Positions 31,641-56,774 of a stretch of DNA of 64,000 nt are shown one piece after another. Made by a program: the position numbers and the translations under genes. Origin of the DNA: an uncultured Gammaproteobacteria bacterium (GTDB taxonomy: Bacteria; Patescibacteriota; Patescibacteriia; Magasanikbacterales; UBA922); the NCBI GenBank assembly GCA_964344965.1, contig CAYFPJ010000002.1, positions 1,068 through 65,067 on the forward strand, written 5' to 3'. Positions within the stretch are counted from its first letter, which is position 1. Each line of letters opens with the position of its first letter. The notes beneath the pieces were generated by a model. That model searched no databases. It saw only the letters and a list, made by a program, of their open reading frames with translations, and was not told where the DNA came from.

Positions 31641-31714
31641 TTCTTTTTTGCTTTTTTGGTGGAGCCAACAGTCTGCTCCTCTGCGATTTTGGGCCATCAA
31701 AAAAGCAAAAAGAA
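31641..31714. other. conserved-loop / variable-stem hairpin, copy 1
   Basis: Stem TTCTTTTTTGCTTTTTTG / CAAAAAAGCAAAAAGAA encloses GGAGCCAACAGTCTGCTCCTCTGCGATTTTGGGCC. Confidence 0.7.
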
Positions 31715-31746
31715 TTTGGTAGTTCATTTTACAATTTTTAAGCAAA

Positions 31747-32859
31747 CTATATCTTCCGATGTCTCCCAGTCCTATTCTCTGCCACTTCTTCTGTAATAAG
31801 TCCATCTTTCAATAACTGCTTTATAGAGTTATCCATAGTAATCATCCCCTCTTTCGCTCCGGTCTGAATAGAGCTCTGGATCTGAGCAATATTATTCTCT
31901 CTAATCAAATTACTAATTGCTGGAGTGTTGACCAAAATTTCTCTAGCAGCAACCCTCTTACCATCTGCAGCAGGCACTAGCTGCTGAGCCACCACACAAC
32001 GAAGAACAGCAGAAAGCTGAATCAAGACCTGCTTTTGCTTTGCCCCCTCAAAAACATCTACTATACGCTCTACAGCTTCAGCAGCAGTAGAAGTATGAAG
32101 AGTAGAAAATACCAGGTGACCAGTCTCCGCAGCAGTGAGGACAGTGGCAATAGTCTCTGGATCACGCATTTCTCCTACAAAGACGACATTGGGGTCTTGC
32201 CGAAGGACATGCTTGAGAGCAGAATCAAAAGATCTGGTATCCACCCCCACTTCACGCTGCTCAATAAGACTTTCTTTATCTTCGAAATTAAACTCTATTG
32301 GGTCTTCAATCGTAATGATGTGAGACTTCCTGGTCTTGTTGATCTCTTCAATCATACTGGCGATAGTAGTAGACTTACCATGCCCTGTCGGACCTACCAC
32401 AAGCACCAGACCGTCTAGAAGGTTGATACAATTCTTGAGAGCTGGCTCAAAACGAAGATCTTCTGGAGTAGGAATGTCCTTGGGGATAAGACGAGCAGCC
32501 AGACCGATCTTACCGTCTTGTCTGTGAACATTGACTCGAAAACGAACTTCACCCACCTCATATCCTAGATCCAACTCAGCCTGGTCAATAAATCTCTTTT
32601 TTTGTTTGGTAGAGATAATATCCATGATATAACCCTCTAGCTCATTGGCAGGCAAAGGACCCTCTTCCCAATACTGAAGCACTCCTTCAATACGTATTGC
32701 TGGCTTTTCATCTCCTACAAGATGTAAATCTGACGCACCACTGTCAATAGCAACTTGAAAATATGATTTTAGTGATTTCATAGATAAAGGCTTAAAAATG
32801 CTTGAAAAGCTAAGAAGGCTTGAAAGACTTAATATCCTTTCTAGTTTAGCACAAAACAA
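31747..32859 (-). CDS. pilT: type IV pilus retraction ATPase PilT (probable start at 32781, MKSLKSY...)
   Basis: Walker A GPTGHGKST and the PilT-specific HLVFSTLHT and AIRNLIRE-like (ISNLIRENN) motifs. Confidence 0.85.
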   Translation of the reverse strand: MFCAKLERILSLSSLLSFSSIFKPLSMKSLKSYFQVAIDSGASDLHLVGDEKPAIRIEGVLQYWEEGPLPANELEGYIMDIISTKQKKRFIDQAELDLGYEVGEVRFRVNVHRQDGKIGLAARLIPKDIPTPEDLRFEPALKNCINLLDGLVLVVGPTGHGKSTTIASMIEEINKTRKSHIITIEDPIEFNFEDKESLIEQREVGVDTRSFDSALKHVLRQDPNVVFVGEMRDPETIATVLTAAETGHLVFSTLHTSTAAEAVERIVDVFEGAKQKQVLIQLSAVLRCVVAQQLVPAADGKRVAAREILVNTPAISNLIRENNIAQIQSSIQTGAKEGMITMDNSIKQLLKDGLITEEVAENRTGRHRKI

Positions 32860-33076
32860 AACTACTAGCTAACCTATCATTTTAGAATCCACATGGGGGT
32901 TTGGGGGAGAAGCTGTTTGAGCCCTGTTGCTAAGTGTAGATGATATTAATAGCACCTCACGGGCGAGTTCTTCTCCCCCAACACTTTTTGTTACTTTTTG
33001 GTGTCAAAAAGTAAGTGGAGAATATATTAACGTCGGGAGTTTGAGAGGTGGGTCGGAGGGAAAGACTTCATGATAA

Positions 33077-33107
33077 AAAAATCCATCATGTAGATGGATT
33101 TTTTTAA
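33077..33107 (-). terminator. bidirectional rho-independent terminator after the YtxH-like gene
   Basis: AAAAAAATCCATC-ATGTA-GATGGATTTTTTT. Confidence 0.75.
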
Positions 33108-33113
33108 TATTAA

Positions 33114-33440
33114 CTATTTCTTCCTACCACCAATTTCTCTCTGTATACTTTTCCACTGCGAGCTGACCAGCTTCACTACCATATTTTTAACATTATCAGC
33201 CAAACCATTTTGAATAGCATATTTGTCCACAGTCTCTCTGACCAAAGTAACATATTTATTCTTGGTCATCTTACCAAATTGATCAGAGGTGGCAACCCTC
33301 TCTTTGACATCAGCATATACATCGGCCGCATAGTCAAAAATTTGGTCACGCACTTCCCTGCCCTTCTTAGTAGTAGAGAGCCACATAAGTCCTGCTCCCA
33401 AGAGACCACCAAATACTAAGCCTTTTTTAAATTTACCCAT
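33114..33440 (-). CDS. YtxH-like small membrane-anchored protein
   Basis: N-terminal GLVFGGLLGAGLMWL TM segment followed by KKGREVRDQI, as in the YtxH family. Confidence 0.45.
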   Translation of the reverse strand: MGKFKKGLVFGGLLGAGLMWLSTTKKGREVRDQIFDYAADVYADVKERVATSDQFGKMTKNKYVTLVRETVDKYAIQNGLADNVKNMVVKLVSSQWKSIQREIGGRKK

Positions 33441-33463
33441 ATTTTTTAGAATATAAAACTAAA

Positions 33464-33576
33464 CTCTTCGTCATTGCGAGGAGTCTGAAAGAACGACGTG
33501 GCAATCTTAGTGTTTGTAAATAAAACAATGAGATTGCCACGTCGTGCTTGCTTCGCGCACTCCTCGCAATGACGAG
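33464..33576. repeat. 113-nt long two-segment hairpin between co-directional genes
   Basis: CGTCATTGCGAGGAGT/ACTCCTCGCAATGACG and ACGACGTGGCAATCT/AGATTGCCACGTCGT, both perfect arms; GC-rich relative to the flanks. Confidence 0.75.
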
Positions 33577-33627
33577 ATTGTAATATTATGAACTCAAAAC
33601 ATTTCACTATTTAGTATAGCAAATCCT

Positions 33628-34806
33628 CTAAGCCCCGGCAAGATCCTCGTACAAAAGTTCCAAGATATCCACAATAGGGCCCCAAGAATATTTCCTCTCC
33701 ACCGCCAATCTAACATCTTGACCAAACCCAAAACGATCCACACTCCCAGAAAAATACTCTACTATTCTGTCTGCTAAATCTGAAGCATCTCCAGGATTGA
33801 AGACTACACCACCATCTGCAGCCACAGTCCTCACTCCTGGCAAATTGCTTGCAATCACAGGTACTCCACTAGACATAGACTCTAAGAGGACCATTCCAAA
33901 AGCTTCTCCTTGATGAATAGAAGGCAAGACTGTCAGGTCAGCCATATTGTAATAATATGGCAACTCCTCCTGACTCACTCTACCCACAAAACGGACAGAT
34001 CTAGATAATCCAAAAATTTTAGCTCTAGACTCAAAATCAGCTCGCAGCTCACCATCTCCCACAAAAACTGTCTGGATTTCCAAATCCATTTTTTTTAATA
34101 AACGCAAAGAATCTAAAAAAACTGGCACTCCTTTGAAGTAGTGGGCTGCATCCATGCCCCCCACAAACAATAAGAGTGGCATATCTGGATTCAAACTGTG
34201 ACGCAAAAAAAGGGCCTCTGGCTTACCTACACGAGGTCTAAAAGTGCTAGTATTAACACCAAAAGGAAGCTCTGCCCATTTATTTTTTTGGGTGAAAAAA
34301 ATGTTGGCAGCACTGCTGTGTTCTATATAATCAAATGAACTAGCTATGATAAGATCTGCAACATCAAGAATTTTCGGCATCCAGTATTTGGCGTAATATT
34401 TGAAAATCAGACCTTTCCATCCAGGTCCGCGTGTGTCCATATGATAAGTGACAACGAGAGGCTTGTCTGGATTACGAAGTTTCCACTTTCGGACCAAGTT
34501 GGCTGTCCCAAAAAATGGATAGTGTAGATGGACTAAATCAAAACGGTCTAACTCTTTTCTTACCTGCGGCAATCTGGCTGCCTTACCGTATTGAAAGCTT
34601 GGCTTTAGAAATTTGGCATATTCGATCTGTTCTTGAATTTCTGGCTCATAGTCTGATTCTTTTTGGGGCAGTTTTTCTTGAAATGTCGGTGTCAATACTT
34701 CCACCTCATGCCCACGTTTGGCCAGTTCGCTAATCGTCTGTAGCACAACATTGCCCATGCCGCCGTAGTAGGGTGGGTAGCTGCAGACTATATGGGCGAT
34801 ACGCAT
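33628..34806 (-). CDS. GT4-family glycosyltransferase
   Basis: N-terminal MRIAHIVCSYPPYYGGMGN and the C-terminal EGFGMVLLE.. E-x7-E region. Confidence 0.85.
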   Translation of the reverse strand: MRIAHIVCSYPPYYGGMGNVVLQTISELAKRGHEVEVLTPTFQEKLPQKESDYEPEIQEQIEYAKFLKPSFQYGKAARLPQVRKELDRFDLVHLHYPFFGTANLVRKWKLRNPDKPLVVTYHMDTRGPGWKGLIFKYYAKYWMPKILDVADLIIASSFDYIEHSSAANIFFTQKNKWAELPFGVNTSTFRPRVGKPEALFLRHSLNPDMPLLLFVGGMDAAHYFKGVPVFLDSLRLLKKMDLEIQTVFVGDGELRADFESRAKIFGLSRSVRFVGRVSQEELPYYYNMADLTVLPSIHQGEAFGMVLLESMSSGVPVIASNLPGVRTVAADGGVVFNPGDASDLADRIVEYFSGSVDRFGFGQDVRLAVERKYSWGPIVDILELLYEDLAGA

Positions 34807-34812
34807 ACAAAT

Positions 34813-35148
34813 TTATTTTTTGTCTATCTCTTCAAGAGAGTCCTGACGTATAACCTTGGTAAAATCACGTTTCAGACCCTCCATCTTAACATGAAGCTTG
34901 AAGAGAAGATAAAAGATAGCAGCAATTGAAAGATAAATTACCAAATCAGCTCCACGACCTATACCAATGTAGTCAGCAAGACGCTGGACAATATTCGGCC
35001 AGACAACCACTACTGCCACCACCATCCAAAATAAAATCCAAAATAAAGCCCCCTTCGGACCAAGTAAATCATCTTCTTTTCTCTTCAAAACCCCCACAAT
35101 GGCAAAAAGACAAAACAAAACCAACAAAACTTGAAATACAACTAACAT
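34813..35148 (-). CDS. DUF2304-family small membrane protein (GT2 partner)
   Basis: Three TM segments; sits upstream of a DPM1-like GT2, the usual genomic context of this family. Confidence 0.5.
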   Translation of the reverse strand: MLVVFQVLLVLFCLFAIVGVLKRKEDDLLGPKGALFWILFWMVVAVVVVWPNIVQRLADYIGIGRGADLVIYLSIAAIFYLLFKLHVKMEGLKRDFTKVIRQDSLEEIDKK

Positions 35149-35175
35149 ACTGCAGAAATTTAAAACTTAAGAATA

Positions 35176-35835
35176 TTAATTCAAAAATTTACCAAAAAAC
35201 AAATCTTTCAAAACTTTCAAACCACCCACCGCTCGTTGTCCATATTCATGATACGTCACTTTGACTGGAAATTCAATATATTTCAAACCATGCCGTTTTA
35301 TCAATTCAGGAATCTCTGAAGCATGAGCCATCCTGTCTTGTTTAATTCTAATTTTATCAAGAGCATTTTTATTCAAAATACGAAAGCCATTATGGACATC
35401 AGTGAGCTTTATCCCCCCAAAAGCACGACTGACCAATCTACCAAGTGGCAATAAAATATGTTTTTTGAACCAAGGAATACGAGAACGGTCATCCAAAAAA
35501 CGAGAACCAAGTAAAACATCCGCCTCCTTCTCTCTCATTTTCTGTAATGCTGGGTTGATATCCAAAGCATCAAATTGATTGTCACCATCAAAATGAAGTA
35601 CATATTCTGCTCCATGCTTTCTTGCATATTCATGACCTGTCTCCAGAGTAGCCCCTTGGCCACGATTGATCTTGTGCCGTATCACCACAGCTCCAGCCTC
35701 TCTAGCTTGCTTTCTCGTACCATCCTTGGAACAATCATCTACAACAACAATCTCATCAACATGTCCAAAAAGGCTCCGCACAACGGAACCTATTCTTTCT
35801 TCTTCATTATATGCCGGAACTATAGCAAGAAACAT
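35176..35835 (-). CDS. GT2-family glycosyltransferase (polyprenyl-phosphate sugar synthase-like)
   Basis: AIVPAYNEEERI...VVDDCSKDGT and the DGD motif (HFDGDNQ). Confidence 0.85.
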   Translation of the reverse strand: MFLAIVPAYNEEERIGSVVRSLFGHVDEIVVVDDCSKDGTRKQAREAGAVVIRHKINRGQGATLETGHEYARKHGAEYVLHFDGDNQFDALDINPALQKMREKEADVLLGSRFLDDRSRIPWFKKHILLPLGRLVSRAFGGIKLTDVHNGFRILNKNALDKIRIKQDRMAHASEIPELIKRHGLKYIEFPVKVTYHEYGQRAVGGLKVLKDLFFGKFLN

Positions 35836-35903
35836 ATTTCAAAATACACCAATTAAGCCAGAGCAGTTAACTACCATATGAGAGGTAAATAATTCCAATT
35901 CAA

Positions 35904-35957
35904 AAGTGTTTAAGTGTTTAAGTGTTTAAGTGCTAAAGTGCTAAAGTGCTAAAGTGC
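35904..35957. repeat. AGTGYTTAA/AGTGCTAAA octamer tandem repeats (3+3 units) directly after the epimerase stop codon
   Basis: (AGTGTTTA)x3 (AGTGCTAA)x3 AGTGCC; as RNA this is (CACUUUAG)x3 (CACUUAAA)x3 and is G-poor. Confidence 0.8.
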
Positions 35958-35962
35958 CAAAA

Positions 35963-36973
35963 TCACGTCATCATCTCCTTATTGGCAATAGTATAGTTGA
36001 TGGTCCTCTTCAGACCATCATCAATCCTAATCAATGGAATCCATCCTAACCCTTCTTTAGCGCGAGTCAGATCTGGCATTCCTTTGGCAGTAAGAAACTC
36101 TAATGGGTCTTCAAATACCACTCTAGAATTGGAACCTGTCATAGCAATAATCTTTTCAGCAATAGCAGACATCTTATGGATTTCATCATGACCCAAATTT
36201 ACTAAGTATATCTCAGGACCAGCATGCATCAGGCGAACCAATCCGTCAACAGTATCTGAGACAAAACAAAGTGACTGGACAAGCGTATCATCACCATAGA
36301 TCACCAGGTCCCGCCCGTCAAGTGCATCTAGGATAAAATCTGGTATCAAGAGACCATCACGAAGCTTCATACGCGGTCCGTAAGTAGTGAAAACTCTGGC
36401 AATTTTAGCATCAAGACCATAAACTTGTCTATAGGTCTCGACACAAGTCTCAGCAAACCTTTTTCCCTCATCATAAGAGCCTCTTGGAGAGAGGTGATTG
36501 ACCTGACCTTCGTCAGACTCAGTAAAAAACCTTTTTTCTGGAGAGGAGGGACCATAGACTACAGAGCTGGAAGTGAAAACATACTTGGAGCGATACTTTA
36601 CAGCCAGATCTAGAGTGTTGAGCATTGCCCTAGAGTTGGCATGCAAGGAGTGTAGTTTTAAATCTTCAAAATTCTTAGGGCTGGTAGGACAAGCCAAATG
36701 ATAAATTTCTTGTATACCTTGAAATTTCAATTTGAATTTTTCTAACTCTGGAAAATCTTTTAGATCAATAGGAAAATTTACGTCATACTTTATAAATTCA
36801 AAGTCAGGATATTGCAACAGATGTTCAACATTTTGGATAGTAGAATTGGACAGATCATCCATACAAATCACATTGGCTTCTCTCAAAAGACGCTCACATA
36901 GATGAGACCCTAAGAAGCCAGCCCCACCAGTCACTAAGACATTTTTCTTTTCAAAAATAGGTGTTTGATCCAT
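35963..36973 (-). CDS. NAD-dependent epimerase/dehydratase (UDP-glucuronate decarboxylase / UXS-like)
   Basis: VLVTGGAGFLGSHL Rossmann motif and a YxxxK-containing SDR core; overall UXS-like. The match is to the family only. Confidence 0.65.
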   Translation of the reverse strand: MDQTPIFEKKNVLVTGGAGFLGSHLCERLLREANVICMDDLSNSTIQNVEHLLQYPDFEFIKYDVNFPIDLKDFPELEKFKLKFQGIQEIYHLACPTSPKNFEDLKLHSLHANSRAMLNTLDLAVKYRSKYVFTSSSVVYGPSSPEKRFFTESDEGQVNHLSPRGSYDEGKRFAETCVETYRQVYGLDAKIARVFTTYGPRMKLRDGLLIPDFILDALDGRDLVIYGDDTLVQSLCFVSDTVDGLVRLMHAGPEIYLVNLGHDEIHKMSAIAEKIIAMTGSNSRVVFEDPLEFLTAKGMPDLTRAKEGLGWIPLIRIDDGLKRTINYTIANKEMMT

Positions 36974-36980
36974 AACATCA

Positions 36981-39005
36981 CTAATTATAAACAGGTGCAG
37001 AAATTAAATTAATATCATTCTGCTTTGTAAAAAAATATTTCTGATCAATTTTTTTTCCAAATTTATCCCAAACACGTGCCGGTTGTCCTCCACCTCTTGG
37101 TATTGCAAACAAATCATCTTCTCCATCATTGTCATAATCTCCGACAGCAAAAGAAAAAGATTTTTTATAGGATCCGTAAGCTAAAAACTTTCTTATTACA
37201 CTACCGTCATCATCATAAAAAACAATCATTGGTCGCTCTCCATCTCCACCTCCTACCACATATTCAAGATTATCATCTTTATCCAAATTAATCGTAGCAA
37301 TTGGACCAATTTTAGAAAAAGATTCAACCAAAAAACTTTCTAAAACCTCTCCATCTCCTGTAATTTTTTCTAATATTAGATTGGAGTCAGCCTCATACAA
37401 CACCACTATGTCATACTTATTGCCTGATTTTGAAAAAGATCTAGAGACAGAAACTCCGTTATGCTTAGAATCTAACTTATGCACATATTTTTCTTCACCT
37501 GTCAAAGAATAAATACTAAATACTGTGTTACTAGACTCCTGTGGCACTATCACTATCTCAAATTCTTTGTCGTCCATCACTTGAATCACTTCCAGACTGA
37601 CTTTTCCGGAAGGGGAGATAATAAAACTATCTTCTCTCTCCCATTGAGAATTGTAAATACTAATTCTTGTCCTCTTGCTATCAAAAGGCTTGGCTGTGAC
37701 AAAAAAAGTTTTACCAGCATATTGATATGAATCAAAGTCATCAATACCAGATAGAGAAATTTCTTTATTGATTATATTTTCTCCTTCTGATTTTAGATCC
37801 CAAGATTCACTATCACCACCAATATTATCTAAAATAAAAATATTTCTTAATGGCCTATTGTTGACAAACTTTTCTAAAGCATAATTTACAGCCTTGTCTA
37901 TTTGCAAAAGACCAGCCCCAAACAGATTGGCGTATATTTCTTCATCTTGACCAGGTGTATGGTGGGTGGTAGATAGGAGGGCTTTATAAATATTTTTTGG
38001 ACCCCAACTTGGTTGGATGCTCTTGATTAATGCTGCCGCACCACTGACCAAGGGGGTGGAAAATGAGGTGCCATTCCAACCTTTCATATACTTTTCCTTA
38101 AGACCATATTTGGGAGAATAACGTACTGTGCTGGCCAAATCCTCTCCAGGAGCTGTGATGTCAATGCAATCTGAACCAATATTAGAAAAGTTAGCAATAT
38201 TATGATTTTTATTGATTGCACTTACTCCAATAATTTTATTTACCTTTTCCCCAGCATCAATACAGATCGGATAGGTGGGATAATCATTCAGATTATAATA
38301 ATTGTTACCAGCTGCTGCGACCATGGCTACTCCATTTTTGTAAGCATAATCCACAGCCTCTTCTATACCTGAAGTGATATCTCCCACTACACTCATGTTT
38401 ATGATATCAGCACCATTATCCACCGCATAGTAGATAGCATTGTGAAGTTTGGCAAAAGAACCAATACCATCCTCATCAACTACACGAAGGTTCATCAATT
38501 TTACATTTGGACTTACACCCGAACCATTCTTCCCATTATCCCCAACAGCTCCAATAATCCCAGCAACCACAGATCCATGATGTACTATTCCGGCATCTTT
38601 TTCGCTTTGAGTCAATTTGTCTACTCTCGGCCGTGGATTGTTATTTCCTTTTTCTTCTTCTTTGCTTATTTTTCTATCTCCGTCAGTGTCTTCTGGAACA
38701 AAACTCCATCCCCAGACATCATCTACATACCCATTGTTGTCATCATCCAAATTATTATTTGGTATTTCTGCTTTATTTTTCCAGGCATTCTTCCTTAAAT
38801 CGGGATGAAATGTGTCAAACCCATTATCAATTACAGCTACCACCACATCTTTTGAGCCCAAAGTATAATCCCAGGCTTTGTACACATTTGTATCAGCATA
38901 AGCCCATTGTTCGACAAAAGGATCATTCAGTTTTTTTGCCTCGACCACTTCGAAAAACAAAAAAGAGAGAGATGCGTAAATTAAAATTAATACAAAATTT
39001 TTCAT
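36981..39005 (-). CDS. secreted subtilisin-like S8 serine protease with C-terminal FG-GAP/beta-propeller-like repeats
   Basis: Signal peptide. Catalytic triad in VAVIDNGFD, HGSVVAGIIGA and GTSFSTPLVSGAAAL. The C-terminal region has DNDGEDD-type repeats. Confidence 0.85.
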   Translation of the reverse strand: MKNFVLILIYASLSFLFFEVVEAKKLNDPFVEQWAYADTNVYKAWDYTLGSKDVVVAVIDNGFDTFHPDLRKNAWKNKAEIPNNNLDDDNNGYVDDVWGWSFVPEDTDGDRKISKEEEKGNNNPRPRVDKLTQSEKDAGIVHHGSVVAGIIGAVGDNGKNGSGVSPNVKLMNLRVVDEDGIGSFAKLHNAIYYAVDNGADIINMSVVGDITSGIEEAVDYAYKNGVAMVAAAGNNYYNLNDYPTYPICIDAGEKVNKIIGVSAINKNHNIANFSNIGSDCIDITAPGEDLASTVRYSPKYGLKEKYMKGWNGTSFSTPLVSGAAALIKSIQPSWGPKNIYKALLSTTHHTPGQDEEIYANLFGAGLLQIDKAVNYALEKFVNNRPLRNIFILDNIGGDSESWDLKSEGENIINKEISLSGIDDFDSYQYAGKTFFVTAKPFDSKRTRISIYNSQWEREDSFIISPSGKVSLEVIQVMDDKEFEIVIVPQESSNTVFSIYSLTGEEKYVHKLDSKHNGVSVSRSFSKSGNKYDIVVLYEADSNLILEKITGDGEVLESFLVESFSKIGPIATINLDKDDNLEYVVGGGDGERPMIVFYDDDGSVIRKFLAYGSYKKSFSFAVGDYDNDGEDDLFAIPRGGGQPARVWDKFGKKIDQKYFFTKQNDINLISAPVYN

Positions 39006-39014
39006 ATCTATTTA

Positions 39015-41991: not shown

Positions 41992-42140
41992 AATAAAAGT
42001 AAATTTGGTTTAAGTAAGACTTCATCGGGCCATCCCCGCAGCAAGCTGCGGGGTATTGGCAGAAAATCTTATTTCAACCAATGTTAGTTTTCACTTTTTC
42101 GATGCAAGCATCGAGGAATAAAACCGCTTAAAGATTAAAA
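41992..42140 (+). repeat. 149-nt structured repeat, copy D
   Basis: Full-length match to the other copies; lies between convergent genes. Confidence 0.9.
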
Positions 42141-45305: not shown

Positions 45306-45442
45306 TAACGAGTAGTGTGAATTAATTTTCACAATTGGCTGAATTGAACTATTTTTGAAGCGAGGACTGTTTGAGCGAAGCGAGTTTCGCAGCGAAAAAA
45401 TAGCTCAATTCAGACAAAAAAATTAATTCACACTACTCGTTA
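45306..45442. repeat. 137-nt element with perfect 24-bp terminal inverted repeats (MITE-like long hairpin)
   Basis: TAACGAGTAGTGTGAATTAATTTT...AAAATTAATTCACACTACTCGTTA. A nested second inverted repeat and GCGAAG/GCGAAA repeats lie inside. Confidence 0.8.
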
Positions 45443-46835: not shown

Positions 46836-46838
46836 AAT

Positions 46839-46875
46839 TATGTACGAAATACGAAAAATTCGAAAATTACGAAAA
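46839..46875 (-). repeat. TTTCGTA-type tandem repeat array (4 units) ending 4 nt before the ugd ATG
   Basis: The minus strand reads TTTTCGTAA TTTTCGAAT TTTTCGTA TTTCGTACAT AATT ATG. Confidence 0.7.
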
Positions 46876-47259: not shown

Positions 47260-47849
47260 CACAAATTGCTACTTTCATGGATACTGATGCCACTGAACCA
47301 AGTGAGGGTAATATCAGAGAAGGATGGACCTCTGACGCACATTTGCGCAAATTAGAAAGTGTAGTAATGCACGAAAACCACCAAAACCAGACTTTTGCTG
47401 ATATTGCAGAAAATGCTGGAGAAAGAAGTAAAAGCCCTGCTGTAAAAATTCTTCTGAAAATAGGCGGACAAATTAACGGATTGAGGCGCATGACCGATAA
47501 AGAACCGATCAAAGACGAAGTTGACAAACTAATCAGAGAGGCCGCAGAGGAAATTGATCAGCTGGAGGATGGAACTAAAAAAGAACGCCTAGACTCACTG
47601 TTGGATTATAATGCTGGTGAGTGGAATAGAGTTATGGGAAATTATGACCTGGCTGCTGAATTGAAAAAACGCTCTGCAACCAAAGCCGAGACAAGCGGGG
47701 ATAGAGTAGGTGCCTCTATCGGGTATGTCGGTGAAAGTGTTCAGAAAGTGAATGAAGCTTTGGTAAATGGTGACCAAACAGAAATAGCTGCGAATCTAGA
47801 AGAAATGATTAGTCGTTCTGATCATCTAATAAAAGTAAATTTGGTTTAA
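47220..47849 (+). CDS. hypothetical protein (TTG start in the track; the last 6 codons, IKVNLV*, come from the repeat)
   Basis: ORF with higher GC than its neighbours; no motif. Confidence 0.35.
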   Translation: MVIGEIPNHEKLATQIATFMDTDATEPSEGNIREGWTSDAHLRKLESVVMHENHQNQTFADIAENAGERSKSPAVKILLKIGGQINGLRRMTDKEPIKDEVDKLIREAAEEIDQLEDGTKKERLDSLLDYNAGEWNRVMGNYDLAAELKKRSATKAETSGDRVGASIGYVGESVQKVNEALVNGDQTEIAANLEEMISRSDHLIKVNLV

Positions 47850-47976
47850 GTAAGACTTCATCGGGCCATCCCCGCAGCAAGCTGCGGGGTATTGGCAGAA
47901 AATCTTATTTCAACCAATGTTAGTTTTCACTTTTTCGATGCAAGCATCGAGGAATAAAACCGCTTAAAGATTAAAA
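47828..47976 (+). repeat. 149-nt structured repeat, copy E
   Basis: Full-length match; separates two GC-richer ORFs. Confidence 0.9.
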
Positions 47977-48024
47977 GAATGCACTGGAGAAACTTATGAT
48001 GAGACCCGCTGGAAATATCTAAAC

Positions 48025-48417: not shown

Positions 48418-48425
48418 AAAATTGT

Positions 48426-48460
48426 AAAAAAATTCTCTACTTCAGGTAGAGAATTTTTTG
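48426..48460 (+). terminator. rho-independent terminator
   Basis: AATTCTCTAC-TTCAG-GTAGAGAATT followed by TTTTTG. Confidence 0.8.
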
Positions 48461-48537
48461 TCTGTTGTTTTTGTGTGTTTTGAACTAATCTACAACTCGA
48501 TATCAGTGTAATCTACTAAAATCTAAGTAATCTGTAT

Positions 48538-49578
48538 TTAGACCTCAAAATCCAAACCATCAATCGAAGTCAGCATCTCCTTGATCTCATCAGTAGTCAT
48601 CAGCTGCTGATCTTTGGAAGAGTACTCTTTGAATTCAGCGCCTTTGGTGCCTGGATACTCAATAGATTTGATGTCATTAAAAATTTCATAACCCACATCG
48701 GGACGCAAAATATACATATCTTCTGTCTCAAGAGCATTTTCTGATTCAGCCAGGCTAAGCAGCTTCTCATGTTGTCTTTCACCAGCTCTCCGACCAATTA
48801 TCTTGGTCTCTATATCTTTTGGCAAATCATTTTTTTCCTTTACTATCTCTAGGACTGACTGCGCTAGGTCACCAATAGTTGCCACCGGCATCTTGAGAAT
48901 AAAAATCTCTTGACCTCTGGTCATGGTACTAGCCTTAAAAATGAGATCCACAGCTTGGTGAGTACTCATAAAAAATCTGGTCATATCTGCATCTGTCACA
49001 GTCACTGGTCCACCTTCCTTGATCTGTCTGATAAATAATGGCAAGACAGAACCACGAGAACCAAGGACATTACCAAAGCGAACCGAACAAAACTTGGTTT
49101 GCTTTTTTCCTTTATAAAAAAATGATGATAAGATTAATTTCTCTGCCAAAAGCTTGGTACAGCCCATCACATTGGTCGGATCAGCAGCCTTATCTGTGGA
49201 GATACTGACTACTTTGTCCACTTTGTTGGCAAAAGCACAAGAAATGATGTTTTGCACACCACCGACATTGGTCTTCACTGCCTCAAAAGGATTGAGTTCA
49301 CATGACACAACATGCTTGAGAGCCGCTGTATGAAAGACGATGTCTACATTTTCCATTGCCATCATCAGACGCTCCTTATCACGCACATCTCCAACCAAAA
49401 ATCTCATTCTAGGATCTCTGCCCAATCTATGTGCTAATTCAAACTGTTTGGTTTCATCACGACTGTAGACCCTCACCTGTCTGACACCAGCTTCGAGAAG
49501 CTGTCTTGTTATCTCCGAACCAATGGAGCCTGTACCTCCAGTTACCAAAACTGTTTTGTTTTTGAATTGTTCTTTCAT
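48538..49578 (-). CDS. UDP-N-acetylglucosamine 4,6-dehydratase (PseB/FlaA1/CapD family)
   Basis: VLVTGGTGSIGSE and the CapD-type extended SDR fold. Confidence 0.8.
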   Translation of the reverse strand: MKEQFKNKTVLVTGGTGSIGSEITRQLLEAGVRQVRVYSRDETKQFELAHRLGRDPRMRFLVGDVRDKERLMMAMENVDIVFHTAALKHVVSCELNPFEAVKTNVGGVQNIISCAFANKVDKVVSISTDKAADPTNVMGCTKLLAEKLILSSFFYKGKKQTKFCSVRFGNVLGSRGSVLPLFIRQIKEGGPVTVTDADMTRFFMSTHQAVDLIFKASTMTRGQEIFILKMPVATIGDLAQSVLEIVKEKNDLPKDIETKIIGRRAGERQHEKLLSLAESENALETEDMYILRPDVGYEIFNDIKSIEYPGTKGAEFKEYSSKDQQLMTTDEIKEMLTSIDGLDFEV

Positions 49579-49714
49579 ATAATTTTTAGTTTACCTTCTA
49601 GATATTACACATCCAGACCTGAAGGAGGAAAAATATATCTAATTGTTTGAGCGCCATTGCTTGCGACTCTTGGTTGGCGCCAAACAATTAGATATATTTT
49701 TACGACTGAAGTGG

Positions 49715-50578
49715 TTATTTATAAAAAATTAAATATTTTTGATACATTTTTTTAATCCCCAAGTCTAGATCATATTCCAAATCTTGTCCAATAATATTCT
49801 TCAATTTACTGCCATCTCCTATTACTGAAAATTTTTCAAAAACAGATTGGCCAAATCTATAATTTAATTTTTTGTATGTCACTTTTTCCACCAACCCAAT
49901 AAGATCCAAAATCGATACCCCCTCACCTGTACACAAATTGAAAACTTCGATTTTTTCCTTTTGGTCAAACTCTACAATAGCATTCAACAATCTTGATACA
50001 TCTCCCACAAATATATAATCCCTCACTTGTCCTCCATCACCATTGATAATAAATTGTTGATTACTGATCAATGCTAATAATATATAATTCAAAATTCCTT
50101 TATTTTTGACATCACCATAGACATTTGCCAATCTAGCTATACACAACTTTATATCATTCCTATCAACAAATTCTTTAAGCAATTTTTCTTCTTCATATTT
50201 TGCTTTTTCATAATCAGTCTTAGGTTCTGGCACCACTTCTTCATCATGTATTTGCGATGAATCTGGATAGACTAGTAAAGTGGATAAATATACGATCTTT
50301 TTCAAACCATTTGCTGATTCCAGAGCCATCATAATATTCCCCATCCGAACACTACTTGGCTGCACGGCTATCACCACCACTTCTATGTCATCCAAAATAT
50401 TTTTTAGCGACAAAAAATCATTATTTAAATCTATTTTTTGATAACAAACCCCTTCTATCGCTTCATTTTTAGATAATTCAGTAGCATGCACGGCTACCAC
50501 TTCTTTTCCACAATTCACCAAGTCACGACACAAATACCCACCGACAAATCCTGTACCACCTATCACAAGTACCTGCAT
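49715..50578 (-). CDS. NAD-dependent epimerase/dehydratase family protein
   Basis: VLVIGGTGFVGGYL Rossmann motif. Confidence 0.6.
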   Translation of the reverse strand: MQVLVIGGTGFVGGYLCRDLVNCGKEVVAVHATELSKNEAIEGVCYQKIDLNNDFLSLKNILDDIEVVVIAVQPSSVRMGNIMMALESANGLKKIVYLSTLLVYPDSSQIHDEEVVPEPKTDYEKAKYEEEKLLKEFVDRNDIKLCIARLANVYGDVKNKGILNYILLALISNQQFIINGDGGQVRDYIFVGDVSRLLNAIVEFDQKEKIEVFNLCTGEGVSILDLIGLVEKVTYKKLNYRFGQSVFEKFSVIGDGSKLKNIIGQDLEYDLDLGIKKMYQKYLIFYK

Positions 50579-50579
50579 A

Positions 50580-51731
50580 CTAATATGTTATTACTTTTTG
50601 GATTGGAGGAAGATCAATGGTTTCCAAAATCTCAACTATCTGCTTGGCTGTATTACCACGGTCATAAGGATTTTTTCCTTTTTTGACACTAGCGATAAAT
50701 TCCTCATCAGTCAAGGCCTTCACGATCCCCTTCTCAATAGCCTCTTGGTCGTTTGGCACATCAATCACATTGACCCCTCGTTCACGACGCTGCTGTCTGG
50801 TCCCTATATTGACAGTGGGTAGACCAAACGAAGGAGCCTCATGAATACCAGAACTAGAATTGCCAACCAAAACGTCAGCCACGTTCAACAGCCGTAAAAA
50901 ATCTTCATAAACTATGTGGGGCAAGACATGAATTCCTGCTTTTTTGATAGATTCAATTATTCTTCGACCGCCAGCATCGTGATTGGAATAAATGGCCAAA
51001 ACTTCCAAATCATGAGTCTCTTTCGTTTTTTTGATAGCAGCAATGCTTTTGTCTATTTGTTGTTCTACCTCTTCTACTTCAGTAGTAACCGGGTGTTGCA
51101 AAAATATAGCTAATTTTTTGGCCAGGTCAATGTCGTATTTCTTGCTAATATCCTCTTTGCTTGGATAATCTATTGATTTGATAGTATCAAGACTAGGACT
51201 ACCAACCAAAAATACATAGCTGGGGTCTTCTCCCAATTTTACAATTCTCTCCACACTTTGCTTGGTAGCAGCGAAATGAAGATGAGCAAACTTGGTACAA
51301 GCATGACGCAGTATTTCATCTATCGTGCCAGTAACTTCCCCACCCTGCATATGAGCAACATGGATATTCAAATGGGTGCCTGTGATAGCAGCAGCAAGAT
51401 GTGCCCCTAGATCAAATCCACAAAATACTATATCTGGCTTCAGCTTTGGGATAATGTCTGCCATGCCTATCAAGGCCTTACCCATAGCCCTAACCATCGA
51501 AGCACCATCATCCGGATCATCCTCTGCAAATATAGGAAGGGTGGCATCTATTTCAAAACCATCTTCCTTGACCACTTTTTCTGTTTCACCAAAATTTTTG
51601 AGAAGGTGAGCACCGGTGATAAGCAAAAGAAGCTCTAGCTCTTCGCTAGCCTGCACAGCTTTCATGATTGGCTTTAGTCTACTATAATCAGCTCGCCTCT
51701 CAGTAACAAATAAAATTCTTCTTTTAGACAT
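50580..51731 (-). CDS. neuC: UDP-N-acetylglucosamine 2-epimerase, hydrolysing (NeuC/LegG-like)
   Basis: Epimerase_2 fold with the typical HVEAGLRS-like (HVAHMQGGEV) and HPVT blocks. Confidence 0.8.
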   Translation of the reverse strand: MSKRRILFVTERRADYSRLKPIMKAVQASEELELLLLITGAHLLKNFGETEKVVKEDGFEIDATLPIFAEDDPDDGASMVRAMGKALIGMADIIPKLKPDIVFCGFDLGAHLAAAITGTHLNIHVAHMQGGEVTGTIDEILRHACTKFAHLHFAATKQSVERIVKLGEDPSYVFLVGSPSLDTIKSIDYPSKEDISKKYDIDLAKKLAIFLQHPVTTEVEEVEQQIDKSIAAIKKTKETHDLEVLAIYSNHDAGGRRIIESIKKAGIHVLPHIVYEDFLRLLNVADVLVGNSSSGIHEAPSFGLPTVNIGTRQQRRERGVNVIDVPNDQEAIEKGIVKALTDEEFIASVKKGKNPYDRGNTAKQIVEILETIDLPPIQKVITY

Positions 51732-51733
51732 AT

Positions 51734-52783
51734 TTATAAATCTATATCATTATATTTTAAATGTGTATCTATAGGGATGTCATTTCTTACGATCTTACCA
51801 AGCAACCCCTCATATTCTCCTGCCTTTATCTCTCCAGTACCCGGACGCTTCACCCAGATATTTTCTTTTGTTAATTTTTCGCCTTCTTTTATATCTTGTA
51901 TTGTCACTACAGTTGCAAAAGCAAAATCTATTGTCACTTGTTCCTCTTTGGCTGCTTCTTTTTTGCCACCACGCATCTTGAATATCTCTCCTGAATCAAA
52001 AATCAAATTCTCAAGAGCTTCAGGATCCATGGAGTTGACAATGTCTGGGCCAGGCCTATCCATACTATCTGTGAAATGCCTCTCGAGGATATCAGCTCCA
52101 AGAGCTGTAGCAGCCAAACAAGCCAAATTGGATACTGTGTGGTCGGACAATCCTACGACAGCATTGGAGAATTCTTTTTGCAATTCTTGCATCCCCCCTA
52201 GTCGAACTAAGTGCGGAGGCGTGGGGTAGAGATTGGTGGTGTGGAGAAGCGCATAAGGAACATTATATTTCTCTACTATTTCTACAGCCTTCTTGACGCT
52301 TGCTATATTATTCATGCCTGTACTTATGATCATGGGCTTACCAAACCCTGCAATGTGCTCGACAAGAGGATAATTATTGCACTCCCCTGATCCAATTTTA
52401 TAGGCAAGCACTCCCATTCGCTCCAGACGATCAGCTGCTGCTCTAGAAAATGGGGTACTAAGAAAAATCATCCCTTTTCCTTCTACATATTCTTTCAATT
52501 TTATTTCATCTTCTTCATTAAGAGCACATTTCTCCATGATGTCATAAATTGAATCTGTAGAATTGCCTGGGATAACTTTTTTGGCCTCTTTGCTCATCTC
52601 ATCCTCTATCACATGGGTCTGGTGCTTGATCACTTCTGCTCCAGCCTGATGTGCAGCATCGACAATGGCAAAAGCCACTTCCAAATCACCTTCATGATTG
52701 ATCCCAATATCGGGAATAACAAAAGTAGGAAAGTCTGGACCGATCTTCCTGTCTCCAATTTGAATGAAATTATTTTTTGGCAT
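51734..52783 (-). CDS. neuB: N-acetylneuraminate (nonulosonate) synthase, NeuB family
   Basis: [23 protein letters not shown], and the SDHT-like block (LSDHTVS), plus a C-terminal SAF domain. Confidence 0.85.
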
Positions 52784-52831
52784 AAAACAGCAATAGATTT
52801 CTCTCCAATTTTTATTTTAATAAAGTTAATA

Positions 52832-52902
52832 AATAGTAGGATATTTTTGTCAGCAACAGTCTGCTCCTTTTAGATTTTGATGGCTAAAATATCCTACTAT
52901 TT
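52832..52902. other. conserved-loop / variable-stem hairpin, copy 2
   Basis: Stem AATAGTAGGATATTT / AAATATCCTACTATT encloses TTGTCAGCAACAGTCTGCTCCTTTTAGATTTTGATGGCTAA. Confidence 0.7.
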
Positions 52903-52943
52903 ATTGATGGTCACAAAAATTAGTTAATGTTCATTATTAAAAT

Positions 52944-53942
52944 CTACAAATCTTTAAAGCCATCCAAAAAACCAAGGATACGTTCATCTTCCTGAAATGT
53001 ATACGGAAATTCTTTCTTTCCTTCTACAGCCTGGAGAAAATCACCAATCTCCGCTTCATACGCTTCTTCACCTGTATTGTATTGTCCCACCTTCTTCCCG
53101 CTGTCAAGATCAATTACCTCAGTATCTCCTTTTTCTGTACCAAAAATACTAATTTTTTTACCCAACCAATCCCAATCTATGGTCCCTTCTGTCCCAATTA
53201 TTTTCAAAGTTCTGCCAGCCTTTCTGTTTATGAGATCAATCATCATATTCCCCACTATACCATTTTCAAATTGTGCGGTGGCAGCATAAATATCATCTGC
53301 TGTCATTTCTAAATCTGATATTTTTCCACGCAAGCCGTAAACTTTCTTTACTGAACTACTGAACATGTCTATCAGCCAGACCAGCTCATAGGCAAACATC
53401 TCAGGACAACCCCCAGTATCCTTCTTGGCAAAGTAAACTTCTTTGTAATCTTCATACGGATGCCAATCTGGCAGATATTGCCCAAGATAATGATTAAAAG
53501 ACAGTGGCTTACCTATTCTTCCTGACAAAATTAACTCTTTAATTCTTTTGACAGCAGGAAAATAACGGAATGTACAAGACGGTGCTGCCACAAAATCATC
53601 ACCAAGCAAAGGATAAAGCTCTTGGTAACCGTCAGGCTTGGTAGTCACTTCTACAAAAAAATGCTTTTTCTTTTTGGCAATCTGTAAAAAATACTGATGA
53701 TGCAAATTTGGCGGAGTAGAAATGATGTAGGCATCTGGATTTATCTCTTGCTCTGCTTCTTCAAAATTTACAAAAGTTTTTATCCCGTATTCTTTGCCAA
53801 CCTCTGTACTTCTCTCTTCTGAAGGGTCAAACCCAAAAATCTGCTCCGCTGGAATTTGATGAAATTTCAAATTTCTAATGCGGCGCTTACCCATCGAACC
53901 AAGTCCAATGATAAGAAATTTTTTATCTGTTTTCACTGGCAT
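52944..53942 (-). CDS. Gfo/Idh/MocA-family oxidoreductase
   Basis: N-terminal KFLIIGLGSMGKRRIRNL Rossmann motif. Confidence 0.75.
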   Translation of the reverse strand: MPVKTDKKFLIIGLGSMGKRRIRNLKFHQIPAEQIFGFDPSEERSTEVGKEYGIKTFVNFEEAEQEINPDAYIISTPPNLHHQYFLQIAKKKKHFFVEVTTKPDGYQELYPLLGDDFVAAPSCTFRYFPAVKRIKELILSGRIGKPLSFNHYLGQYLPDWHPYEDYKEVYFAKKDTGGCPEMFAYELVWLIDMFSSSVKKVYGLRGKISDLEMTADDIYAATAQFENGIVGNMMIDLINRKAGRTLKIIGTEGTIDWDWLGKKISIFGTEKGDTEVIDLDSGKKVGQYNTGEEAYEAEIGDFLQAVEGKKEFPYTFQEDERILGFLDGFKDL

Positions 53943-54873
53943 ATTTCTTTAAATCTTCTATTATTTCTACATCGTGTATTGCCTCATCTACGTTGGAAAA
54001 GTAATCACCCTTTTGGAGAGAATCTATAAAAAAATCAATCTCTCTCTCATACATATTGTTGCGTTCCAGTTCTATTTTTTCACTCAAAATAACACTCTCA
54101 TGATTCTTGACAACAATCGTATTGTTATCGCTATTCCAGACTAGAGTACCCTGGTCCCCAGCTATCTCCAAATATCTACCATAGGGAACGCGGATATAAT
54201 CTTGGTGAATTGATACTATCACTCCAGAATCACTAACTAAAACACTCTCTGCACAATCCTCAGTATCTATCTCCAAACTTGAAATTTTGTCTAGATAACA
54301 AATTTTGGCTTGCAACTTTTCTCCCAATAGCCAGGCCGGATAGTTTATTTCATGCACTAAGTCAAGCATTACTCCCCCGCCATCATCCTTACTAGATGAA
54401 TAACACTGGCGATAATCTCGCTCTCTCCACTGGAGCAAATCCTGTCCAACTGAAACGCGCATATAATAAATACGACCCAAAATTTTATCCTTCAAAATTT
54501 TCTTAATGTGGAGAAATGGTTCAAAAAAATGAAAATTATAAGCTACCCAAGAACTAATTTCTTTTTGCTTCATTTCTTCCGCCAGCTCTGTCAACATTTT
54601 GATGTTATTTGAAAGAGGCTTTTCAATCAACAGTGCTTTTGGATTGAGCTTAATACATTTTTCAATTGTTTCCACGTGCTTCGATGTCTCGTTGGTAATA
54701 AAAAATGCGTCAAAAGGACCATGCTTGGCTAGCTCATCCCAAGAAGAGACAGTTGTAATGTTTGACAAATCAGTTCGCTTGGATAAAACAACAGTATCGA
54801 CATCTTTATAAAACTGCAAATTCTCTAGATGCCTTTTTCCAATTGAACCAAATCCAATTATGCCAATTTTCAT
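53923..54873 (-). CDS. Gfo/Idh/MocA-family oxidoreductase
   Basis: N-terminal MKIGIIGFGSIGKRHLENL. Confidence 0.75.
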   Translation of the reverse strand: MKIGIIGFGSIGKRHLENLQFYKDVDTVVLSKRTDLSNITTVSSWDELAKHGPFDAFFITNETSKHVETIEKCIKLNPKALLIEKPLSNNIKMLTELAEEMKQKEISSWVAYNFHFFEPFLHIKKILKDKILGRIYYMRVSVGQDLLQWRERDYRQCYSSSKDDGGGVMLDLVHEINYPAWLLGEKLQAKICYLDKISSLEIDTEDCAESVLVSDSGVIVSIHQDYIRVPYGRYLEIAGDQGTLVWNSDNNTIVVKNHESVILSEKIELERNNMYEREIDFFIDSLQKGDYFSNVDEAIHDVEIIEDLKKYASENR

Positions 54874-55619
54874 AGACCTTTTTTTTCTTGTTCTAATTCT
54901 AGAATTCTATCTTTCATTTTTTCTTTATTTTGATAAAAAAGCTCAGCCATGGCCCACTCTTCTGGATCATCTAGGTCAACCGAACGCCATTTTGGACAAA
55001 CCACTGCTTTGGTCTTCTTGGTAATCACCAATTTTTCTTTCAATAAAGCTCCCATCTCAATGATATAAACAAAACAACCATTTAGTAGATAGGCCTTCTC
55101 CCAAGTCTGTGTATTATTAGAATGTGTCTCTAATCCATTGACAAGAACTGTGTCATTTTCTGTGCTAAGATGATATAGCTTAGGATGAGTCGGGCAGACT
55201 GTCAAAACTGTTGTGGCATCAGTGTCTTGCATCATCTGCCAACAATCTTCAATATCTTTAATTTCTCGCAAAAGAGAAGTGGTTTGTAAAATCATCAAAT
55301 GTGTCGGCTCATATCCTTCATCATTTTTTAATTTTTCCAAAGTATAGAGAATACTGTCGACGACATTGGCACTATCCGATGCCAAATGTTCAGGACGCAA
55401 AAATGGTACATCTGCTCCATACTTTTTTGCCACCTTAGCGATCTCTTCTGAATCAGTGTCTACGACTACTCTATCGATAAATGGCACGGACAAAGCCTGC
55501 TCAATAGCATAAGCAATCAAAGGTTTACCCAAAAAATCCTTGATATTTTTACCAGGAATTCTTTTGGAGCCAGCCCGAGCTGGGATGTAGGCTAGTATAC
55601 GCTGCTCTTTCTTATCCAT
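54870..55619 (-). CDS. neuA: CMP-nonulosonate synthetase (acylneuraminate cytidylyltransferase, NeuA family)
   Basis: LAYIPARAGSKRIPGKNIKDFLGKPLIAYAIE. Confidence 0.8.
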   Translation of the reverse strand: MDKKEQRILAYIPARAGSKRIPGKNIKDFLGKPLIAYAIEQALSVPFIDRVVVDTDSEEIAKVAKKYGADVPFLRPEHLASDSANVVDSILYTLEKLKNDEGYEPTHLMILQTTSLLREIKDIEDCWQMMQDTDATTVLTVCPTHPKLYHLSTENDTVLVNGLETHSNNTQTWEKAYLLNGCFVYIIEMGALLKEKLVITKKTKAVVCPKWRSVDLDDPEEWAMAELFYQNKEKMKDRILELEQEKKGL

Positions 55620-55620
55620 A

Positions 55621-56655
55621 TTATTCTAAATCTTCTTTAAGAATATGTTCGCCATTTTTAATATTTCTTTTTACTTTTTTGTCAACCAAAGTGTCAAATT
55701 CTTCGATAGATATATGCCCATCTTCAGGCCGATATGGACGAATAGACATAAGATCATCTGGCTCGAGCACTGATCCGACTGACAAATCTTTGTGTGCACA
55801 AATTGCCTTATGAGCCCAAGTCTTGTATTGCAATACTTCATCATCAATCTGATAATTTCTAGTTATTTGATAAATCTCATCTACATCTGCTAGCATCTTT
55901 TTGAACTGATCTGGAACAATACCAACTGAAATATCAAGACTCTCAAATTTTGGTTTGACCTTATGTTCTGGAAGACAGATATGCTTTTCCATAATCGTCA
56001 CTTCCTCCATGCCTGCTGCTACCAAGATAGCATTGGTCCCAGCCACATGATCAGAATACCCAAAGTTAAATTCTGGAAATTTGGACTTCATTTTCTCGAT
56101 CAACCTCAAATTGGCCAGACGTGGCGGTGTTGGATAAATGGTTGTACAGTGAAATATAATTAACTGATCAGCGTAATTTTGGTATTTTTCTAAAACCCGC
56201 ATTACTTCTTCTTCTTGCAAAAGACCAAGAGAAAGTAAAACTGGCTTGCCTGTGCCAAGAGCCATATCTATCATTCGATAGTTATTGCTATCACCAGACC
56301 CAATTTTTAAGACTGGCATCCCAGCTTCGGCTAGCTCTACCAAATCATACTCATTGTGGGTAGTAGCAAAACAAGTGATTCCTTTTTCTTTCCCATACTT
56401 CATGATTTCAAGAAAATCACTTTTACTCAACGCTCTTTGACTAAGACGCTCTCGCCAATGAACGTCTATCTCACTAACTACATTTTCTGGAGTAATACTT
56501 TGGAATTTTAAAAGTCTAATACCCGCCTTTATGGCTTCATCTACGAATTTTAAACCTACTTCTTTTTCACCAAATGTCAAAACACCAGCCTCTGCGATTA
56601 CTTCTGGTTTTTTGTTTGATCCAACTATAATACCCCTATCTAATTCTATATTCAT
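55621..56655 (-). CDS. NeuB-family nonulosonate synthase, second paralog
   Basis: KIGSGDSNNY, YSDHVAG, and a C-terminal SAF domain. Confidence 0.75.
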   Translation of the reverse strand: MNIELDRGIIVGSNKKPEVIAEAGVLTFGEKEVGLKFVDEAIKAGIRLLKFQSITPENVVSEIDVHWRERLSQRALSKSDFLEIMKYGKEKGITCFATTHNEYDLVELAEAGMPVLKIGSGDSNNYRMIDMALGTGKPVLLSLGLLQEEEVMRVLEKYQNYADQLIIFHCTTIYPTPPRLANLRLIEKMKSKFPEFNFGYSDHVAGTNAILVAAGMEEVTIMEKHICLPEHKVKPKFESLDISVGIVPDQFKKMLADVDEIYQITRNYQIDDEVLQYKTWAHKAICAHKDLSVGSVLEPDDLMSIRPYRPEDGHISIEEFDTLVDKKVKRNIKNGEHILKEDLE

Positions 56656-56700
56656 AAATTAGTAGTGAGTTATGCTTATATTATTTACAAACAAAGCCGA

Positions 56701-56774
56701 AAAATGAATTGATTTCTTGGACAGCAACAGTCTGCAAGAGGTGTGATTTTGCTGGCTAAAAAATCAATTCATTT
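56701..56774. other. conserved-loop / variable-stem hairpin, copy 3
   Basis: Stem AAAATGAATTGATTT / AAATCAATTCATTT encloses CTTGGACAGCAACAGTCTGCAAGAGGTGTGATTTTGCTGGCTAAA. Confidence 0.7.

Follow-up and report, generated by a model that had tools for sequence, protein, structure and literature searches.

Palindromic hairpin modules with a conserved, strand-specific core at gene junctions of Candidatus Magasanikbacteria

The repetitive extragenic palindromes (REPs) and REPINs are the described sequences that come closest to the hairpins reported here. They are imperfect palindromes of ~35 nt with fixed bulges, situated extragenically between co-directional genes and downstream of coding regions; they have no terminal inverted repeats or target duplications, expand in a genome-specific manner and occur in genomes that carry a RAYT-like gene. 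One criterion for REPs is a GTAG or CGTC tag that is conserved, unpaired and terminal (PMC3733652). High copy number is another, and REPINs combine conserved arms with a variable loop. Perfect hairpins also have a second described origin: template switching is a documented route by which hairpin arms are created and perfected in one step (PMC8794818, PMC13100816). Hairpins of this origin (Monttinen and Loytynoja; quasipalindrome correction) have perfect arms made from arbitrary sequence, changes on both arms, inverted loops and new palindromes that incorporate pre-existing local sequence. Here, we describe a hairpin family, F1, that shares features with both. It was analysed in a stretch of 64 000 nt (the window; GenBank assembly GCA_964344965.1, contig CAYFPJ010000002.1, positions 1068–65 067) deposited as an uncultured Gammaproteobacteria bacterium and placed by GTDB in the Patescibacteriota, order Magasanikbacterales. 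The closest homologues of the penicillin-binding protein PBP2 encoded in the window are 58–76% identical and include proteins that their sources assign to Candidatus Magasanikbacteria or Patescibacteria, which identifies the host as a bacterium of the candidate phyla radiation (CPR). F1 reverses the layout usual for palindromic repeats, in that its top is conserved while its long arms vary freely and are unrelated between copies.

Three F1 hairpins are present in the window, all intergenic and all on the + strand, at the sites given in a preliminary description of this DNA. Copy 1 (31637–31718, +; core ~31663–31698, with the variant core start GCCAACAG) lies between a pilT-like ATPase gene (stop codon at 31747) and PBP2/FtsI (start codon at 31599). 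Copy 2 (52826–52907, +; core 52848–52885) lies between a GFO oxidoreductase gene and a NeuB gene, and its arms (52828–52847 and 52886–52905) pair perfectly over 20 bp. Copy 3 (56702–56774, +; core 56716–56760, arms 56702–56715 and 56761–56774, terminal loop AAGAGGTG) lies between an epimerase gene and a second NeuB gene. The flanking genes are all on the − strand and are transcribed in the order given, so that the spacers precede ftsI, neuB and the second neuB as had been stated. The hairpins are found 28–49 nt past a stop codon and 37–46 nt ahead of the next start codon, always in the same orientation relative to the flanking genes.

The 11-mer CAACAGTCTGC occurs unchanged in 3/3 window copies and is followed, after 7–9 variable nucleotides, by GATTTTG. 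The pattern CAGTCTGC-N5–12-GATTTTG occurs three times in the window, with 0.00 occurrences expected (100 shuffles), which upholds the earlier claim of a shared core. A covariance model was built from five sequences, namely the three window copies and two copies from relatives (m1 and m2, see below). It recovered the window copies with 64.6–70.3 bits on the + strand and 16–26 bits on the − strand, and found no fourth copy in the 64 kb. The hairpins matched no Rfam family: the only matches in the window to reach the gathering score are two tRNA genes (29361–29434 and 29550–29621, − strand), and a permissive Rfam search with copy 2 returned generic hairpin and miRNA noise only.

The whole hairpin is 73–82 nt long, with an AT-rich base and an interior of 37–45 nt. 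The outer stems comprise 14 bp in copy 3, 20 perfect base pairs in copy 2 and ~18 bp with one bulged T in copy 1, and are unrelated in sequence. Beyond the core of ~37 nt, no conservation was seen among the copies. The stems had been described as perfect, unrelated and 13–18 bp long; pairing and unrelatedness stand, whereas the lengths and the perfection of copy 1 have to be amended as above. The region taken to be an open loop of ~35 nt is not open. In every copy it is a short imperfect palindrome that forms the same bulged helix on the + strand, consisting from the base of CCA/UGG or an equivalent, a G×A mismatch (G–C in copy 3), CAA/UUG, a bulged C, AGUC/GAUU with an invariant G·U pair, a bulged U, a helix of 2–3 bp and a variable loop of 5–7 nt. 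The z-scores of the + strand folds are −5.3 to −8.2. The core halves are separated by distances that differ by 2 nt, which fits a hairpin better than a site for a duplex-binding dimer. The terminal loop of copy 3 (56737–56744) matches the reverse complement of the loop region of copy 1, CTCCTCTG (31678–31685), at 6/8 bases; on this sequence comparison, the loop appears to be inverted relative to copy 1 in cores that are otherwise co-oriented.

The fold is strand-specific. Whole-hairpin energies calculated with either RNA or DNA parameters favour the + strand in 5/5 copies. The core alone gives one consistent fold on the + strand in all five (−7.9 to −13.7 kcal/mol), whereas on the − strand the folds are unrelated and inconsistent (−4 to −8.9 kcal/mol). 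By our count there are ~9 independent G·U (or G·T) pairs on the + strand versus one on the − strand (binomial P ~0.02), four of the nine at variable positions right below the core; C to T changes on the G-rich sense strand, the mutational bias to be expected here, would push the pattern the other way. The + strand runs antisense to the neighbouring genes at 4/4 independent sites.

Over the five distinct sequences, 90.3% of cells are paired compared with 74.3% in shuffles, and 0/500 shuffles attain 90.3%. Two-sided changes affect nine pairs, of which seven belong to the basal stem P1 and one each to P2 and P5; the core helices P3/P4 are invariant. Since the two-sided changes fall outside P3/P4, this is the kind of ‘covariation’ that any DNA palindrome shows, and the earlier view of it as the hallmark of a functional RNA or DNA structural element is not supported. 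The basal stems (14–25 bp) are almost purely Watson–Crick with hardly any G·U pairs, which points to copying at the DNA level rather than to RNA selection. F1 is a real, strand-specific, structure-conserved hairpin module; a structural family with a conserved interior and differing yet paired stems had been proposed, and this is borne out.

The family extends beyond the window. The same core, within a perfect stem of 20–22 bp, is present at a single orthologous site between the genes for a TPP enzyme and an aldehyde dehydrogenase (Aldedh) in two other Magasanikbacteria lineages of metagenome-assembled genomes, m1 (loci L050, L122 and L124) and m2 (loci L080 and L120). The hairpin is here 6–14 nt past the stop codon. 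Between m1 and m2 the core differs solely in the terminal loop, and two paired stem positions are changed on both arms with pairing kept (G–C to A–T and C–G to G·U). The flanking genes are 83–87% identical in nucleotide sequence and the non-coding DNA beside the hairpin is largely unalignable; F1 has been kept at this site since the two lineages diverged by ~13% in nucleotide sequence. A scan of public genomes (596 Gb) was made with an 18-base pattern that was too loose, ~139 chance matches being expected by our arithmetic. It gave 116 loci, of which 114 were chance matches and only two (L050 and L080) were real. A metagenome scan with a 21-base pattern recovered the m1/m2 lineage only, plus chance matches. 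In a viral collection the core gave chance matches alone and the stem of copy 2 gave none, and F1 was not found in ~250 kb of other Magasanikbacteria loci.

Comparison of orthologous junctions shows how the module came to its sites. The TPP/Aldedh junction measures 157 nt in m1 (L124 2322–2478) and 236 nt in m2 (L120 1175–1410). In the relatives without the hairpin it measures 8–17 nt (L134, L135 and L139/L140), the spacers being 9, 8 and 17 nt where the TPP enzymes are 95, 90 and 83% identical, respectively. The pilT/PBP2 junction of copy 1 is 30 and 3 nt long in two relatives, and in the closest (L130, PBP2 76% identical) it is an unrelated 131 nt, again without the hairpin. Because the orthologous junctions are short or unrelated, the F1 hairpins are insertions, and the module entered short gene junctions; this contradicts the earlier statement that such an element is not the mark of a transposon. 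Immediately beyond the hairpin, read along the sense strand, the m1/m2 site retains the ancestral spacer ATTTTT(T)CT (ATTTTTCT). The ancestral 9-nt spacer ATTTTTTCT (L134 11708–11716) now forms one arm of a new small palindrome, TACATTTTTCT-GAGC-AGAAAAATGTA. Trees of the genes to either side of the element conflict, the TPP gene grouping m1 with m2 and the 5′ part of Aldedh grouping m1 with L134, which suggests recombination around this site. No target duplication, terminal (inverted) repeats or direct repeats were found at the F1 flanks. Insertion into pre-existing terminator loops was considered and rejected, since the ancestral junction has no hairpin and native terminators look different.

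We give a probability of roughly one in three to the reading that F1 is an inserted, REP-like DNA hairpin module, with stems that template switching both builds and keeps perfect. F1 would then be a small family of palindromic insertion modules in some Candidatus Magasanikbacteria. The unit would be the ~37-nt imperfect palindrome, of which the + single strand folds to a bulged hairpin with a G×A mismatch, a C bulge, a G·T/G·U pair and a T/U bulge. Strand-specific bulged hairpins are structures that are read by HUH/Y1 enzymes and other structure-specific proteins. The core, read as a single-stranded hairpin, would be what is recognized and propagated, and the module would act as single-stranded DNA, possibly mobilized by the putative RAYT-like transposase of the genome. 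The long, perfect, AT-rich basal stems would not be part of what moves; instead, intrastrand template switching (fold-back copying), with the core hairpin as its seed, would make them and maintain their perfect pairing site by site. Template switching is suggested by the new palindrome on the old spacer, the apparent inversion of the copy 3 loop (6/8 bases) and the nested palindromes described below. It accounts for the stems, not for the same 37-nt core centring hairpins across loci and genomes. The patchy distribution among Magasanikbacteria, with empty orthologous sites, also counts for an insertion module, as do the + strand-specific apical fold, the lack of direct repeats at the flanks, the uniform orientation of the copies and the presence of a RAYT-like gene in the window. 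Any host benefit, such as the separation of neighbouring transcription units, would be secondary.

The RAYT-like gene (10250–10933, − strand) encodes 227 amino acids with the HUH motif NHYHIL and the tyrosine motif NYILKNPFKH. The protein scores 78.1 bits against NCBIfam NF047646 (cut-off 80), matches Pfam Y1_Tnp and has 4ER8 as its best PDB hit. It is a candidate trans-acting partner of F1 by co-occurrence, a circumstantial link. Its 5′ flank contains a 9-bp hairpin with a mere GAGTTTG resemblance to the second hairpin family (F2, below), and its 3′ flank contains none. The gene has kept its synteny with methyltransferase and radical SAM genes in another Magasanikbacteria species (55% identity), where there is no room for flanking repeats. 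Homologues in relatives adjoin or overlap their neighbours (a 66% identical homologue overlaps), and the gene looks as if it was inherited vertically. Many RAYT-like homologues are on contigs of 1–3 kb. A gene for a TrwB/VirD4-like type IV coupling protein (8209–10164, − strand) lies directly downstream of the RAYT-like gene.

Several points weigh against a REP-like module. Several defining features of REPs are missing: 5/5 F1 sequences lack a GTAG/CGTC tag beside the core or at the hairpin base, few copies are known to date (three per 64 kb) and the RAYT-like gene is not flanked by F1. This gene is syntenic and apparently vertical in relatives that show no such hairpins. A more obvious RAYT substrate is a 149-bp repeat with five copies, all on the + strand and 97–100% identical (4200–4348, 18577–18723, 20057–20205, 41992–42140 and 47828–47976). 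The main difficulty is that the + strand is the template for transcription and, by GC skew and gene orientation, also the leading-strand template, so that of the two strands it should be the less exposed in single-stranded form. The core is near-identical across lineages and the m1/m2 hairpin is better conserved than the neighbouring non-coding DNA, which hints at host function rather than mere selfish persistence. No donor or intermediate was seen, and the 22-bp stem at the m1 site has no source in the ancestral local sequence.

A second family in the window, F2, has the same design. Its interior, CTGTKTGAG...GCGAGTT, lies within stems that are unrelated between copies, and aligns with that of F1 position by position (ACnGTnTG...GCGAnTTTG). 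The copies are at 32901–32981 (copy c), 45335–45417 (I12; 22-bp stem, core GACTGTTTGAGCGAAGCGAGTTT) and 59565–59645 (I3; stem of 25–30 bp, core CACTGTGTGAGTCAAAGCGAGTTTGG), all on the + strand. Orientation is therefore uniform in the window, with three F1 and three F2 copies on one strand. Copy c and the next hairpin, of 10 bp (window ~32890–33025), are 78% identical over ~125 nt to L120 5765–5890 in m2, where F1 and F2 are co-oriented; the two families thus co-occur, co-oriented, in both lineages. The ~125-nt element stands in unrelated gene contexts in the window and in L120, shows a compensating change in the outer stem and, in L120, follows a terminator, as an independent gene would. We take it as a candidate small RNA gene; it has no match in Rfam.

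This element bears on the alternative that survives best: F1 and F2 may be structured + strand RNAs, antisense to the operons, in which the bulged apical helix binds a protein and the stem is a double-stranded RNA handle. We regard this as possible. The G·U bias and consistent fold on the + strand, the two m1/m2 stem positions changed on both arms yet still paired, the conservation of the hairpin relative to the adjoining non-coding DNA, and the recurrence of F2 within a ~125-nt element in unrelated contexts all speak for it. The near-absence of G·U pairs from the basal stems is not expected if selection acted on RNA only, and the invariance of P3/P4 deprives the core helices of covariation evidence. 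Nor is there a conserved + strand promoter, a T-run after the hairpin on the + strand or an Rfam match, and the patchy distribution with empty orthologous sites also tells against RNA genes. A reading of F1 as a promoter was rejected, as no consistent −35/−10 pair was found at the F1 copies on either strand. A small open reading frame or Shine–Dalgarno sequence in the loop was likewise rejected, being present in copies 1 and 2 only and not conserved.

More doubtful is the proposal that F1 and F2 represent an undescribed class of CPR hairpin modules, with a conserved strand-specific apical helix for protein recognition that is inserted into gene junctions and then grows a locus-specific perfect stem. 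Two forms would fit: a single-stranded DNA mobile element with fold-back arms, or dispersed snoRNA-like or tigRNA-like RNAs that serve a conserved protein. A full-text literature search returned no description of such elements in CPR bacteria, which have tiny genomes, few known regulators and few described repeats. F1 is a tractable case for the origin of new hairpins and gene boundaries, whether by template switching or by single-strand transposition, and also bears on what reads such structures in CPR cells. Should F1 be only a REP-like selfish repeat, its interest would be modest and mainly descriptive.

On the sense (−) strand, F1 could be an intrinsic terminator, an attenuator or a stabilizer of 3′ ends with a factor-binding site as its interior; we consider this unlikely. 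A terminator or attenuator on the transcribed strand had been suggested earlier, and this finds some support. As with the Rho-independent terminators of Magasanikbacteria, every F1 copy is a stable intergenic hairpin after a stop codon, and a T-run follows on the sense strand at 3/4 independent sites, as judged by eye in copy 3, m1 and m2, and never on the + strand. The insertion also turned a junction of 8–17 nt into a long spacer able to carry its own promoter. Against it, the apical helix pairs well only on the + strand, and on the sense strand has A·C mismatches where the + strand has G·U pairs and folds weakly and inconsistently. The T-run of m1/m2 is the ancestral spacer, not the element's own. 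Native terminators differ and share no sequence, whereas F1 is 73–82 nt long with an AT-rich base and a conserved interior; the relatives carry mostly ordinary ones with an A-run, a short G+C-rich stem, a loop of 3–8 nt and a T-run. A consensus terminator scan found nothing at the three window copies.

Identification of F1 with dispersed stem-loop guide RNA units of a TIGR-Tas-like system is very improbable, although the formal likeness makes a comparison with those systems worthwhile. A TIGR unit consists of a palindromic stem, box C, a 9-nt spacer, box D, a loop of ~9 nt, box C, a 9-nt spacer, box D and the closing stem; stem-loop units, with variable palindromic stems around an interior of conserved motifs, are present in Patescibacteria/CPR (PMC12045711; bioRxiv 10.64898/2026.09.09.750476). 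The interior of such tigRNA units (Faure et al., 2025; Xu et al., 2026, preprint), ~37–45 nt, also agrees with F1. The m1/m2 core can be parsed as CCA-GCAACAGTC-TG, a 9-nt loop and CGA-TTTTGATGG; m1/m2 fit the first box C–N9–box D interval perfectly, copies 2 and 3 with one base changed, and the loop has 8–9 nt. By our arithmetic, a single interval of this kind is expected by chance at ~1 in 128 positions. The second interval has an NGA box C, but its box D is AT or CT, not TG or CG. Furthermore, the would-be spacers GCAACAGTC and TTTTGNTGG are invariant in 5/5 copies and pair with each other, and the copies are solitary, 4–21 kb apart, and form no array. Pfam, NCBIfam and PDB sequence searches with the window's open reading frames revealed no Nop-domain or Tas-like protein, and the window contains no target-like 18-mer.

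It is equally hard to credit that the core is a duplex-DNA site, such as the operator of a dimeric regulator or an attC-like or dif-like recombinase core site, with an incidental outer palindrome: it is an intergenic imperfect inverted repeat of two conserved, non-identical half-sites of ~13 bp with a variable centre, but the half-site spacing varies by 2 bp and strand-asymmetric G·T pairing would be meaningless in a duplex. Integron attC sites resemble F1 in being structure-defined hairpins of variable sequence, with one active strand, between co-directional genes. In attC the base is conserved (R and L boxes) and the top variable, the reverse of F1, which has no RYYYAAC/GTTRRRY boxes. F1 is also flanked by core genes (PBP2, pilT) that are syntenic in relatives, unlike integron attC, and the window yielded no integrase or recombinase gene.

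The 149-bp repeat has two internal hairpins with GCAAGC loops. It shows no obvious terminal inverted repeats or target duplications and no Rfam match, and has the appearance of an active IS200/IS605-type (PATE) miniature element. The copy at 18577–18723 splits rarA/mgsA (17973–19408, − strand) into an AAA part (18659–19408) and an MgsA_C part (17973–18527); in relatives the gene is intact and encodes 448 amino acids (L154 224–1570). The short-read contigs of the window genome break at this repeat (L150 and L151).

Long hairpins with large interiors are unusually frequent in the window, and several hairpins are nested palindromes. The hairpins at 49629–49701, 11681–11754 and 25531–25600 have (near-)perfect stems of 20–25 bp and interiors of 24–31 nt, and belong to neither F1 nor F2. 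The hairpin at 11681–11754 occupies the entire spacer between the divergent methyltransferase and radical SAM genes, a spacer that measures 33 nt in a relative; both arms of this hairpin are palindromic in themselves. Two G+C-rich nested hairpins at 23768–23885 and 542–691, with CCTCCC/GGGAGG-rich arms and energies of −79 to −87 and −59 to −71 kcal/mol, have short motifs in common, e.g. GGAGRGAGACAGAG and ACCTGTCCTYCTCC, and may be another repeat or RNA family. Stem arms as guides were considered and rejected, as no arm had a significant second match; the stem of hairpin I10 gave one 19/21 match, with a chance of ~2% per 21-mer and 11 stems tested.

Clusters of an ACGGAT/ATCCGT motif (TATCCGTAA) occur at 8090–8155 in the window (five copies in a spacer), at ~2322–2350 in L124 and at ~1175–1260 in L120. 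Copies lie directly upstream of the Aldedh start codon in m1 and m2, within the inserted DNA, and the clusters are possibly an operator. Most of the F1 and F2 hairpins of the window are contained in a glycan locus (42231–63953) with two NeuB-type synthases, two UDP-GlcNAc 2-epimerases, two cytidylyltransferases, CysD/CysN-like genes and several epimerases.

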